Position numbers: made by a program
Source: Bdellovibrionales bacterium
Lineage (GTDB): Bacteria; Bdellovibrionota; Bdellovibrionia; Bdellovibrionales; UBA1609
NCBI GenBank assembly: GCA_965219095.1
Contig: CBDCMT010000001.1
Location: forward strand, 2,080,001 to 2,144,000
Length of the DNA stretch: 64,000 nt
Reading direction: 5' to 3'
Shown here: in pieces, positions 36,001 through 39,000 of the stretch
How positions within the stretch are numbered: the first letter of the stretch is position 1
Layout: each line of letters begins with the position of its first letter

Positions 36001-39000
36001 ATCTTATGAAAAAGTAAAATTAAGGCATTTAATACAGTACAATTTAAAAAGTATCCGCTGTTATTTTTTAAAAGAAGACTTCCGACAGTTATGGACCTAT
36101 GTTTCACCAACTTGGGCTGGTAAATTTATAGACAGTTGGACGAAACGAGTCATGCTTTCAAAAATTGAACCTATGAAAAGAGAAGCAAAAACCATACGAA
36201 GACATAAGCTACTTATTCTTAATTACTTCAAGGCTAAAAAAACCTTCTCCTCAGGGATTGTAGAGGGTTTAAACAACAAAGTAAAACTCACTATGAGAAA
36301 ATCTTACGGCTTTAGAACCTCGATTTGGGCTGGAATACGCTTTGTGGGATTGCTCTCAGAAAAAAAGAGAAGGATGTGATTAGAAAAATGATAAGGCTAG
36401 ACTCTATTGTTGATGTATCCCATCGCATCAGGTTATCAAGTGGTACCTTGTATGCTCAGAGCATTAATCACAATGTTGGAAAAATCAAAGGACGTTTAGT
36501 TGTTTGTTACAATCAAAGGAGAGCTTTAGATATAAGAGAATCTCGTTTGGACGAAATTGCAAACGCACAAATTCTTTTGTCTAAAAATAAAAATATAAAA
36601 CCAGGTTTGGAAAAATACCTTACTCCAACAGGAAGATTAAGAAGAGATCGGTTGAATTTAGAATCTGAGTTTGATGGTTACTCTTGTATATTTTCTACAA
36701 AAAAGATCTCTGCAAAAGATATTGTTAATTTGTACTATAAGAAAGAGATAATTGAAAAATCTTTTAGGACCTTAAAGGGAATAACAAATTTGAGACCAAT
36801 TCGTCATTGGCTTTACAACAGAGTTCAATCACATGTCTTTATATGCTATTTATCTTGTCTGATACTTTCAATTCTAAAAATGAAGCTTGAAAAGATGCAG
36901 ATGTCTCCAGAGGAAGCTCTTGAAGAACTCGGTAGCATGTATAATGTCTATCTTTATGACCGAAAAAATAAAACTAGACTTATCAAAACAGTAGCTTTGA
37001 ATAAAGTTCAAGAAAAAATACTAAGATCTATTGGAAAAAGTCTTGTCAAAAAAATGTCCGTCTGTAGTGTACATTTTTGAGCACGAACTTAGGTAAATTA
37101 GAAACTTTGATAACTGATAACTTCTCCATCTTAGGAACCTGAAAACCTAAACGGAAGCACTATATAAATTGCATAAGTGTATCACTTGAGACAAAAAATT
37201 GCTGTGCAGAATTTTTTTGTCTCAAGTGAAAAGATTAATTTTTCTTTGATTCTTAGCTAAAAATGTGTTAAAGTTATATATGTGGCTTAAAAAAGTCCTT
37301 TTAGGAACTTCCATTTTAACTCTCCTTATTCTACAGCTTGTCTTGATCTATAAGGATGTGATTGAAGAAGAAGAGCTTTCTAAAACACCACCGCTTCAGA
37401 AAATTCAAGGACTTTATGTTATAGGTTCAAACAATAGACAGAGAACTTGGAAGCTTTATAGTAAAACAGCGTTTTATAAAATAAAAAAAGAGTTTCTCTT
37501 AGAAACGGTTAGTGCAGAATTTTTTTTCAATAACAGCATATCCTTTAAAATTGTATCAGATAGAGGGAACCTTCATCTTCTTGAGAAAGACTTTGACCTT
37601 AAAGGTAACGTACAGATCGAATCAAGAAATAATTTAAGATTCTTTACAGATTTAGCTCGATATATATCATCTGAAAGAACCCTAAGAGCGGATAAAGTTT
37701 TTATTAAAAGTTTGAGTAAGGATGGTCTTTCCTTAAAAGGAGAAGAGCTTTTTATTGCTATCAATAAAAAATATCTAGAAATTGAAAAACCCTTAGTTTC
37801 TTCTAAAAATATAAAAATTAAAGCAAATAAAGCTTTTTTGAAAGATGGAAAAAAAAACATTCATTTTTCCGATGATATAGAGGTGGAATTACAAAGCTAC
37901 AAAGTTACAAGCAAGAAGGCCTTTTTAAGCTATAAAGATGCTTCTTTTACTCCACACTTTTTGCAAATGAGCAATCAAGTAAGACTTACTGGCAGGAACG
38001 TTTGGGCTGTTTCATCTAAAATGAAAGTGGATCTTCCTAAACAAAAGTATATTTTTGAAGGAAATTCAAGATTATTGTATAATTATAGTGAGCTTAAAGG
38101 GGAAAAAATTATTTTTTATGGAAAAACTAAAAAGCTTGATATAATTAAAGGGCAGTTGGAATTTCAAAGAGGAATTAAAGGTGAATGAGCTAAGAGTTCA
38201 TAATCTCTCTAAGAGCTTTAAAAGTAAAAAGGTGGTGAAATCGATTTCACTTTCTGTTCGCCAAGAACAGGTCGTAGGACTTTTAGGAGCTAATGGAGCT
38301 GGTAAAACGACAAGTTTTTATATGACGGCAGGTCTTTTGTTTTCTGATTCAGGGGAAGTTTTTATAAATGATCAAAGAATTGATCATTTATCTTTAAGCG
38401 AAAGAGTTAAAAAAGGTCTGGGTTATTTGCCTCAAGAATCAAGTATCTTTAGAAAAATGACTGTTGAAGAAAACATACAAATTTCCTTAGAATCTCTTAA
38501 CTCCTTATCTCCTAATGAAATTAAGAGTAACACTGATAAAATTATTACAGACTTTCATCTTAATTCTGTAGCTAAAAGTTTAGGTTATACACTATCTGGA
38601 GGTGAGAAAAGGAGAGTAGAAATTGCTCGTGCTATTGCCAGAAGACCTTATTTTCTCTTGCTAGACGAGCCCTTTGCAGGCATTGATCCTATATCGATTA
38701 ATGAATTGCAAGAAATGCTTTTACAGTTAAGAAAAAAAGAATCTCTGGGCATACTTATTACAGATCATAATGTAAGAGAGACTTTAAAGATTTGTGATTA
38801 TGCATATTTGTTAAAAGAAGGTGAGATTTTAGTCCAGGGGGATTCCAAGGCTGTAGTTCAGTCTCCTCTGGCCACAAAATTTTATTTAGGGTCAGATTTC
38901 AAATTATAGAGTATAATATTATAGGGTATAATTTTTATGGCAATGAAATTAAAAACTACTTTTAAACTATCTCAAAACCTAAGAATGAGCCAGCAACTTC

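Follow-up and report, generated by a model that had tools for sequence, protein, structure and literature searches.

An intact Lpt export bridge is retained in a Bdellovibrionales bacterium though its genes for LPS synthesis have been deleted

The Lpt machinery is described in its canonical form, LptA-G, from E. coli and Shigella (PMC6744409). It is also found without LPS synthesis in Borrelia burgdorferi, Treponema pallidum, Thermus thermophilus and Thermotoga maritima, where glycolipid or lipoprotein cargo has been proposed, the glycolipid for the Lpt of all four genera (PMC10353723). In Caulobacter crescentus, inner-membrane components of Lpt type are likewise implicated, through the sphingolipid transporter LptF2G2C2, in the movement of a non-LPS lipid (10.64898/2026.04.12.717747). 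What the Lpt of LPS-less bacteria carries has been debated chiefly on the evidence of Borrelia, which has no LPS-making sister to compare. The genome examined here, that of Bdellovibrionales bacterium (GTDB UBA1609, GCA_965219095.1; G000 below), retains an intact Lpt export bridge though the genes of LPS synthesis have been deleted. In this it resembles Borrelia and the other three genera; however, compared to these systems (PMC10353723; 10.1101/2022.12.21.521298), its loss is secondary, in an LPS-making order with LPS-making sisters. The order also holds LPS-less lineages without Lpt, LptE is kept in G000, and there is one GT4 glycosyltransferase with no GalU, ManC or RmlA. Whereas the LptF2G2C2 proteins of C. 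crescentus are paralogues in a sphingolipid locus of a bacterium that still makes LPS, only ancestral copies exist in G000, with no Spt-like gene, and no additional LptF/G/C set was found within any lipid locus. Within one order, three states can be seen: both LPS and Lpt, neither of the two, and Lpt on its own. This points to one testable enzyme, the core GT4 of the order.

The window is the whole stretch of 64,000 nt that was analysed (CBDCMT010000001.1, 2,080,001-2,144,000, forward strand); window coordinates count within it, and C1 and C2 coordinates refer to the contigs of G000. The first-pass annotation had reported a full set of Lpt genes, and six were indeed found, all full length, so that by gene content the bridge is complete: fused LptC-LptA, LptB, LptF, LptG, LptD and LptE. 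The lptC-lptA fusion (window 37265..38188, plus strand, 307 aa) matches Pfam LptC (E 1e-10) and an LptA-type domain (LptD_N, E 2e-7), and its product scores above the cut-off of the NCBIfam LptC model. Because lptA is fused to lptC in one ORF, it is not missing from G000. The lptC-lptB start had been placed at 37280; the gene was confirmed, but its ORF begins at 37265 and 37280 is the sixth codon. An N-terminal membrane helix is followed by a single long beta-jellyroll, whose model (pLDDT 87.9) matches the folds of solved LptC, LptA and the LptD N-domain. Alignment with 8 relatives indicates that the fusion is the usual form in the family. The lptB ATPase gene (window 38181..38909, plus strand, 242 aa; 319.5 bits against a cut-off of 240) is intact in its Walker A/B, Q-loop, signature and H-loop motifs, F90/R91 groove and C-terminal F/L. 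The lptD gene (C1:280520-282874, 784 aa) encodes the N-terminal jellyroll and retains the cysteine pair as C160/C757 (C173/C725 in E. coli), and lptE lies at C2:662441-663010 (Pfam E 1e-7). LptF and LptG form the textbook pair. Both are encoded at full length at the two C2 loci listed earlier, with the names swapped in that listing: lptF is at C2:998456-999553 and lptG at C2:438824-439963. Their matches (E 9e-51 and 2e-52), the only two in G000, fall under the NCBIfam cut-offs and over those of Pfam. The bridge thus shares with the canonical E. coli/Shigella system (PMC6744409) its set of components, the motifs of the ATPase, the jellyroll fold and the disulfide pair of LptD; the differences are the LptC-LptA fusion, the absence across the family of the basic phosphate-binding residues of the cavity, and the lack of lipid A and MsbA.

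It had also been claimed that the Raetz-pathway and Kdo genes are absent, and no gene or remnant was detected among those searched, which for lipid A covered the pathway apart from LpxH/LpxI. LpxC, found in 98 of 121 genomes, is absent from G000, as are LpxB and WaaA (each in 4 of the 5 genomes searched); LpxD exceeded its cut-off in 3 of 5 genomes, G000 not among them. Six-frame profile searches, which read through stops, gave no remnant of lpxB, lpxC, lpxK, waaA, kdsB, kdsC, kdsD, lpxL or GT9 heptosyltransferases in G000, the sensitivity being lower for the lpxD, kdsB, kdsC, lpxL, waaC and waaQ profiles, built from E. coli sequence alone. Family scans covered about 130 selected G000 proteins of 1676 single-copy ORFs, so that further lipid enzymes may have escaped them. 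LpxA/LpxD-like matches proved to be unrelated hexapeptide proteins, and the KdsA-like match a DAHP synthase (368 vs 114 bits). The reported absence of an MsbA-type flippase was borne out by an empty ABC_membrane search in G000 (2 of the 5 genomes searched gave matches) and by the ancestral gene order, from which msbA has been cut. In the closed relative G025, the most MsbA-like gene (34% identity to E. coli MsbA, E 1e-101) occupies the place that corresponds to a gap of 110 bp in G000 (window 24927..25036). To its left is a uvrA-like gene, so labelled from sequence motifs rather than the family scan (22089..24926, plus strand), and to its right a sigma-54 activator (25037..26581, plus strand), 48% and 56% identical to their G025 neighbours.

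Altogether, msbA, kdsA, murA and murE are gone between retained neighbours, with residual gaps of 110, 65, 9 and 0 bp. The lptCAB genes themselves remain in their ancestral block with rpoN (sigma 54; 38937..40412, plus strand), the conserved 3' neighbour of lptB and our anchor for gene-order comparison among relatives, and with hpf, for the S30AE ribosome hibernation factor (40901..41242, plus strand), which closes the block. A stack of multicopy insertion-sequence (IS) ORFs (28598..37080) ends 185 bp before lptC-lptA, and none of these ORFs lies inside lpt genes. The assembly of G000 is 94% complete, in two contigs with one open end inside an IS, and the LPS genes might therefore sit in unassembled sequence. 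We regard this as very improbable, because several missing genes were excised cleanly from the ancestral order. Moreover, C1 circularises via full-length hutH, there is an 8.6-kb overlap between one end of C2 and C1, and for the missing genes to share the unassembled part they would all have had to move there from six or more different loci.

Among the LpxC-less relatives, the pattern is different. LptF/G and LptD were each found in none of the 16 other such genomes tested (those apart from G062, G070 and two family f9 drafts), and lptC-lptB beside rpoN is missing in all 9 compared. The observation of the first-pass annotation that this genome alone has lost synthesis and kept transport therefore holds among the genomes tested. 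In G087 the absence of LpxC is an assembly gap only, both LpxB and WaaA having been found. In a control panel, Thermus, Deinococcus and Thermotoga were seen to have LptF/G but no LpxC. A loss of LPS shared with genera g3, g17 and g18 was rejected, as G000 groups with LPS-making G021/G046 in an RpoC tree (SH-aLRT 95), a quick tree with long branches and no bootstrap; the RpoN tree leaves that point unresolved.

Judged from sequence, the bridge is probably still in use, because catalytic motifs are kept and divergence is no greater than in LPS-making relatives. Relative to RpoC, the distances in G000 (range of LPS makers) are 2.0 (1.4-3.7) for LptB, 6.1 (4.2-9.1) for LptC, 5.1 (2.4-7.9) for LptF, 4.6 (2.4-5.9) for LptG and 4.2 (3.6-7.1) for LptD; relative to RpoN, LptB, F, G and D of G000 are the lowest. 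These rate tests are blind to a very recent release from selection. When 169 ORFs of G025 were searched in G000, 66 were intact, 74 absent, 24 weak and 5 partial. With none of the partial ones carrying a stop codon, unused genes in G000 seem to be removed outright and not to decay in place. Were 7 LPS loci (a count made from G025) and 5 Lpt loci exchangeable, the chance of losing exactly the 7 LPS loci would be 1 in 792. It is rather unlikely, in our view, that the Lpt genes are cargo-less relics which await deletion or persist through some side effect, be it of operon structure or of outer-membrane assembly stress. Such a view fits the loss of Lpt in every other LPS-less lineage tested, the undated position of the LPS loss on the long G000 branch, and the retention of murD without murC or murE. 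It also fits the partial flagellar export set, in which FlhA (592 aa) and FlhB (219 aa) are short and which persists without flagellin, hook, rod or motor; transport parts can therefore outlast their cargo in this genome. However, truncation is seen in the flagellar remnants but not in the Lpt proteins, and nothing remains of any lipid A gene searched, while all six Lpt genes retain their full length with IS ORFs at distances of 185-3354 bp. Only 12 of 19 family-invariant columns of LptG and 24 of 35 of LptF are kept in G000, but in the LPS makers G021, G046 and G061 the proportion lost is comparable or greater. The earlier proposal of a genome caught between two losses is thus weakened by six whole genes at five IS-flanked places beside a lipid A gene set that left no remnant, and by Lpt divergence within the range of LPS makers.

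The first-pass annotation gave two readings of Lpt. The contrast with relatives on which they were built is real; a switch of cargo, the commonest known explanation (Borrelia, Thermus, Caulobacter), is missing from its text as available to us. The evidence suggests a change of cargo in G000 from LPS to another lipid, for which a glycolipid of the cell's own making is the likeliest candidate and lipid acquired from other bacteria a possible one. Export of a home-made, non-LPS glycolipid is the best reading, held tentatively and at somewhat less than even confidence. LptB2FG would draw on ATP to extract the lipid from the inner membrane's outer leaflet; the fused LptC-LptA would then hand it to LptD/E and so to the cell surface. 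The role of MsbA would pass to a non-ABC flippase or scramblase, for which no candidate was identified in G000. The likeliest cargo would be a simple glycolipid made in the cell. As its maker, the candidate is a glycosyltransferase (C2:1671786-1673048), the sole GT4 of G000, which is predicted to bind membranes and has a basic amphipathic helix (residues 142-166). UDP-GlcNAc or UDP-MurNAc would serve as donor; G000 appears able to make no other nucleotide sugar, and the sugars would come from salvaged cell wall. By fold, the protein comes closest to MshA and BshA, which are GlcNAc transferases, although the fold matches are 13-18% identical. The automatic name 'diacylglycerol glucosyltransferase' is carried by 10 of 120 listed homologues; against this role, the protein reaches only 31 bits with the glucosyl-diacylglycerol synthase model, whose cut-off is 400.

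GT4 occurs in 103 of 121 genomes. It is absent from each of the 13 family members that lack LpxC and also from G106 and G112; G000 keeps it, while among the 17 further genomes without LpxC in those lineages 15 do not. The LPS makers G021, G046 and G018 have GT4 too, with only GlmU and MurU. Against the link to a glycolipid, GT4 is kept in G089 and G098 without LpxC, LptF/G or LptD, and hence does not need Lpt; it is also absent from the LPS-making drafts G011, G024 and G032 (80-91% complete), and many genes are lost together in small genomes. Several other candidates were rejected. An HddA-like kinase, considered as an Lpt partner, was found in 30 of 34 genomes, and 12 of the 16 that lack Lpt have it. 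For O-antigen or capsule on another anchor, neither WaaL/Wzy_C nor, with E. coli queries, WcaJ, Wzx, Wza, RmlB-D, ManC, GalU, Ugd or WecB/C was found in G000. Cavity changes from the family consensus are seen in LptG (D34N, Q66W) and LptF (Q30D, R33Q, E317T); remodelling specific to G000 was dismissed, as LPS-making G021 differs from the consensus at as many positions.

Two further cargoes can be weighed against the glycolipid. Movement of ordinary phospholipid, of an amino-lipid or of a lipid decorated with phosphoglycerol to the outer leaflet is decidedly unlikely. The PE and PG pathways are present, together with an LtaS-like sulfatase-fold protein, an MBOAT, an LplT-acyltransferase fusion and a GNAT adjoining a membrane hexapeptide protein. 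However, phospholipid delivery does not need Lpt, since 16 relatives live without both LPS and Lpt, and TamB/TamA-like and Mla-like genes were detected in G000. The LtaS-like gene occurs in 1 of 5 relatives, and was rejected as a core Lpt partner. Export of surface lipoproteins is quite improbable. In its favour, knock-down of LptD in Borrelia is reported to trap surface lipoproteins (10.1101/2022.12.21.521298), and G000 has Lnt and two LolC/E-like genes. On the other side, a rough lipobox pattern is seen in 46 of the 1676 single-copy ORFs, G000 keeps the LptE that is absent in the Borrelia model, and glycolipids are favoured even for Borrelia (PMC10353723). A sphingolipid cargo was discarded: no serine palmitoyltransferase match to E. 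coli Kbl was obtained, the GNAT at C2:936474 has no Spt partner, and one of the 6 PF00155 matches in G000 is a HisC-like neighbour seen in G025.

The remaining possibility, that LPS or lipid A is taken from prey or neighbours and placed on the surface by Lpt, is unlikely. It finds support in the coincidence in G000 of two oddities, Lpt without LPS and the loss of wall precursors. The outer membrane of Bdellovibrio bacteriovorus, of the same order, contains prey lipid A, with prey envelope parts being reused, according to the 1981 work of Nelson and Rittenberg as cited in PMC13689555; however, that species has its own mannosylated lipid A, whereas G000 can make none. LptG of G000 no longer has the acidic residue that the family carries at position 34. 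A D31H change in Burkholderia LptG allows unmodified LPS through (PMC5377068), and we take position 34 to lie in the corresponding region. LPS-making sisters G021 and G046 have likewise lost D34 and show the change at K133, and both changes so predate the loss of LPS. The route through the cytoplasm is closed without MsbA, and LptB2FG draws its cargo from the inner membrane. No route by which LPS from outside the cell would reach that membrane is known to us. Five phosphate-binding positions that are K/R in E. coli are N, K, D, Q and T in G000, the gene content does not show predation (no flagellum, one DacB), and the association comes from a single genome. The earlier suggestion that Lpt moves prey lipid A thus has circumstantial support from wall salvage, and is opposed by the missing MsbA and by an LptF/G cavity that has not shifted to the basic E. 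coli type.

A broader version, in which wall and outer membrane alike would be built from the parts of other Gram-negatives with stolen lipid A or LPS placed by Lpt, is no likelier; gene content supports its wall half, while the LPS half would need a novel route to the inner membrane or bridge. 

G000 is the only genome of 38 without either MurA or MurE, and MurB, GlmS, MurC, and DAP and D-Glu synthesis are absent as well. This loss, which takes in the whole de novo synthesis of wall precursors including the tripeptide, is unusual (1 of 38 genomes) and makes the claim of prey lipid A in Bdellovibrio worth retesting. The salvage set comprises Mpl, LdcA, AmpD, AmgK, MurU, NagZ and NamZ, of which AmgK, MurU and Mpl are best matches below NCBIfam cut-offs. 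Because only muropeptide salvage is kept, the wall would depend on other bacteria. The MurNAc auxotroph Tannerella forsythia (PMC5790795) similarly lacks glmS, murA and murB and has a MurNAc-salvaged wall; G000 goes further, being without MurC, MurE, and DAP and D-Glu synthesis, and would need the whole tripeptide via Mpl, with the uridyltransferase half of GlmU kept. Mpl was considered as a new gain and rejected, since it was found in 34 of 34 genomes; salvage is therefore ancestral, and the novelty lies in the loss of synthesis alone.

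LpxC, detected in 98 of 121 genomes, is absent from the Bdellovibrionales bacterium genome (G000, contigs C1 and C2), as are LpxB, WaaA, ABC_membrane and LpxD, for which positive controls gave matches. Profiles from relatives and E. coli, six of them built from E. coli sequence alone, revealed no remnants of LPS genes in six frames read through stops; LpxH and LpxI were outside this search. In the closed relative G025, uvrA and a sigma-54 activator flank an MsbA-like gene, and the same two genes are 110 bp apart in the window. Also, kdsA of G025 is located between a regulator and lptF, where the gap in G000 measures 65 bp, and downstream of fabZ lpxA-lpxB-lpxK are found in G025 and an IS in G000. 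Rearrangement in G000 makes the lpxC and lpxD sites less telling. Retention of neighbours without msbA, kdsA and lpxA-lpxB-lpxK therefore argues against an assembly gap. The absence of lipid A synthesis beside a kept Lpt bridge, as claimed in the first-pass annotation, is real: LpxC and the other enzymes are missing, the Lpt ORFs are full length, and the Lpt of G000 has no LPS to carry.

The assembly (3.11 Mb, two contigs, 34% G+C) may represent one nearly closed chromosome, since C1 is circular, its ends joined across a 505-aa HutH, and the terminal 8.6 kb of C2 duplicates C1:220448-229047; the start of C2 is the sole open end. For one core protein, the homologues carry the labels Bdellovibrionales, Pseudobdellovibrionaceae or Bdellovibrionota. 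Our own ORF caller gave 3394 ORFs, of which 1308 are multicopy, mostly IS-like, and make up 26% of the bases. Dense stacks of several IS families occupy window 28598-37080 and 47508-59021, flanked by intact core genes. Those core genes of G000 that were compared with G025 are intact or absent, and none is broken.

The product of window 37265-38188 is a 307-aa protein that combines LptC and LptA-type domains and can be aligned along its length with eight relatives. Its structure model (pLDDT 87.9) consists of one helix and one long beta-jellyroll, matching solved LptC, LptA and LptD N-domains. Since both domains and the jellyroll occur in one protein, lptA is present as a fusion. Downstream lie lptB (window 38181-38909), with 18/18 checked residues intact or the same as in relatives, then rpoN and hpf. 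Four further loci carry LptF, LptG, LptD and LptE as full-length ORFs, and judged by sequence these proteins are Lpt family members. BamA, a TamB/Omp85 pair and MlaD/E/F-like genes are also encoded. Two partial copies of the lptD 3' end, each between unrelated genes, were observed at C2:229980-230267 (75%, two stops) and C2:1120950-1121078 (93%).

That G000 alone has lost synthesis and kept transport holds against 16 LpxC-less genomes: LptF/G occurs in 0/16 of these versus 18/18 LPS makers, and LptD in 0/16 versus 21/21, counts that leave out four other LpxC-negative drafts. Beside rpoN, lptC-lptB is gone in 9/9 LpxC-less loci. The lack of LpxC in G087 is taken as a gap, since LpxB and WaaA are present. 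A quick RpoC tree (31 rows) places G000 beside the LPS-making G021 and G046, apart from the clade of genera g3/g17/g18 and the pair of genera in family f7. This position points to three or more independent losses of LPS, one of which left Lpt in place, the branches being long, the placement unsure and the kin not independent. LPS and Lpt were lost together by clean deletion in at least two Bdellovibrionales lineages (G002, G006, G016, G017, G036, G043, G044, G053, G057, G058, G064, G067, G068, G089, G098, G106 and G112), of which no mention was found in the literature searched.

The first-pass annotation proposed either a relic or a bridge for prey lipid A. The Lpt of G000 is probably still in use. 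RpoC-scaled distances put all five Lpt values inside the LPS-maker ranges, and four are lowest when scaled by RpoN. At each lpt locus IS ORFs come within 185-3354 bp, and none has entered. Tracing in G000 169 complete G025 ORFs, taken from regions chosen around envelope genes, gave 66 intact, 74 absent (including G025-specific and spurious ORFs) and 24 weak, the other 5 being partial and free of stops. Against continued use, LptF, LptG and LptC lack roughly one third or more of the columns invariant in the family, and comparable loss is seen in some small-genome LPS makers. Also against it, genes are kept without partners elsewhere: murD without murE, and a flagellar export remnant (L354:2585-9744, C2:942582-949744; C2:1413298-1414248) of fliP, fliQ, fliR, short flhA and flhB, and short fliF, alongside which no flagellin, hook, rod, motor, C-ring or FliI was found. 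This remnant, which also includes an flhF-like GTPase and a sigma factor, may be a repurposed secretion gate; G000 has type IV pilus genes and no flagellum.

As to prey lipid A, the LptF/G cavity was compared at the contact positions given in PMC6744409, and additionally at LptF K30. The five basic E. coli cavity residues correspond to N35, K131, D37, Q40 and T330 in G000, showing no shift toward binding phosphorylated prey LPS. Nor do they show remodelling specific to G000, since the changes at LptG 34 and 133 are common to G021 and G046. In the family, position 34 of LptG is D and position 317 of LptF is E, consistent with the mannosylated, phosphate-free lipid A described for B. bacteriovorus (PMC13689555).

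As regards another cargo, searches of G000 gave no Spt-like gene, O-antigen ligase, GalU, ManC or RmlA, and the glycosyltransferases left are one GT4 and two GT2. The GT4 (L103:9787-11049, C2:1671786-1673048) is order-wide, single-copy and lost with LPS in most lineages. It occurs in 103/121 genomes; the 18 without it are 13 LpxC-less family members, G106, G112 and three LPS-making drafts, and in G089 and G098 it persists although Lpt is gone. The protein contains a basic amphipathic helix, its nearest folds are MshA and BshA at low identity, and its unusual donor motif, with the usual first glutamate replaced, is common to 15 aligned sequences. Among 120 listed homologues, 10 are automatically named diacylglycerol glucosyltransferase, a name unsupported by NCBIfam, and six carry a generic name. 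Nucleotidyltransferase matches numbered 33 in 14 genomes, 30 of them classified; G000, G021, G046 and G018 have GlmU and MurU only among those classified, which circumstantially favours UDP-GlcNAc or UDP-MurNAc as donor. The GT4 may be a missing enzyme of lipid A or glycolipid synthesis in the Bdellovibrionales. The LPS sugar supply of G061 looks unusual, with GalU and MurU matches, no GlmU match and no GT2 (L110, L222, L327, L347).

De novo peptidoglycan precursor synthesis is gone from G000, and only salvage is left. MurA is missing in G000 only, of 38 genomes, and MurE likewise; MurB and GlmS were not found, and E. coli queries for DapA, DapE, DapF and MurI gave no match. The loss covers GlmS, half of GlmU, MurA, MurB, MurC, MurE, DAP and MurI, and the loci bearing on loss and salvage are C1:200226-203548, C2:1408443-1408453, C2:158740-161858, C2:603108-604921 and C2:1927759-1928763. 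Between prmC and its neighbour murA is excised, leaving 9 bp; ftsI overlaps murF by one base; and the 334-aa GlmU is without its acetyltransferase end, of which no remnant exists. The MurC-like protein matches Mpl best (348 vs 302 bits), and its gene sits with LdcA and AmpD. AmgK-MurU, NagZ, NamZ, MurF, MraY, MurG, MurJ and Yej/Opp-type permeases are kept. Since Mpl occurs in 34/34 relatives, salvage is ancestral, and what is new is that synthesis was lost. The wall would be built from MurNAc, GlcNAc and DAP tripeptide of other bacteria, the nearest known case being Tannerella (PMC5790795).

Lpt without LPS is already known from Borrelia, Treponema, Thermus and Thermotoga, where a glycolipid cargo was proposed (PMC10353723); in preprints, lipoprotein export is reported for Borrelia (10.1101/2022.12.21.521298), and Caulobacter Lpt paralogues are linked to sphingolipid (10.64898/2026.04.12.717747). 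Related literature includes PMC13721041, PMC9944714, PMC5377068 and PMC5555675, and the part of PMC11656739 at hand mentions no Lpt, lipid A or murA gene. The Lpt of G000 would work most like that of LPS-less spirochaetes and Thermus. Earlier work cited in this literature includes Nelson and Rittenberg 1981, Schwudke 2003 and Putker 2015. For the Bdellovibrionota, neither loss of LPS or MurA nor retention of Lpt was found described in the literature searched, which covered few subscription papers and no supplements, where genome tables could list cases. What is new is a recent LPS loss confined to one lineage, whose sisters span all three states, the single candidate glycosyltransferase, and a parallel dependence on salvaged wall parts.

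Several other genes were observed. A GNAT, BioF2-like by Atlas, adjoins a membrane-anchored hexapeptide protein (L197:6474-8392, C2:936474-938392), and two more such hexapeptide proteins adjoin peptidase genes (C2:2183852, C2:2196289). An LtaS-like sulfatase-fold membrane protein (L283:5251-7113, C2:1741251), which few relatives have, and a DltB-like MBOAT with an unassigned neighbour (L286:2500-4782, C2:1468500-1470782) are possible surface-lipid decorators. An HddA-like sugar kinase (L298:1950-2930, C1:77950-78930) is conserved in 30/34 relatives, and no heptose pathway was found in G000. Additionally, a mevalonate kinase-like gene has a partial duplicate nearby (L203:8142-9026 and 11423-11947; C2:2168142 and C2:2171423).
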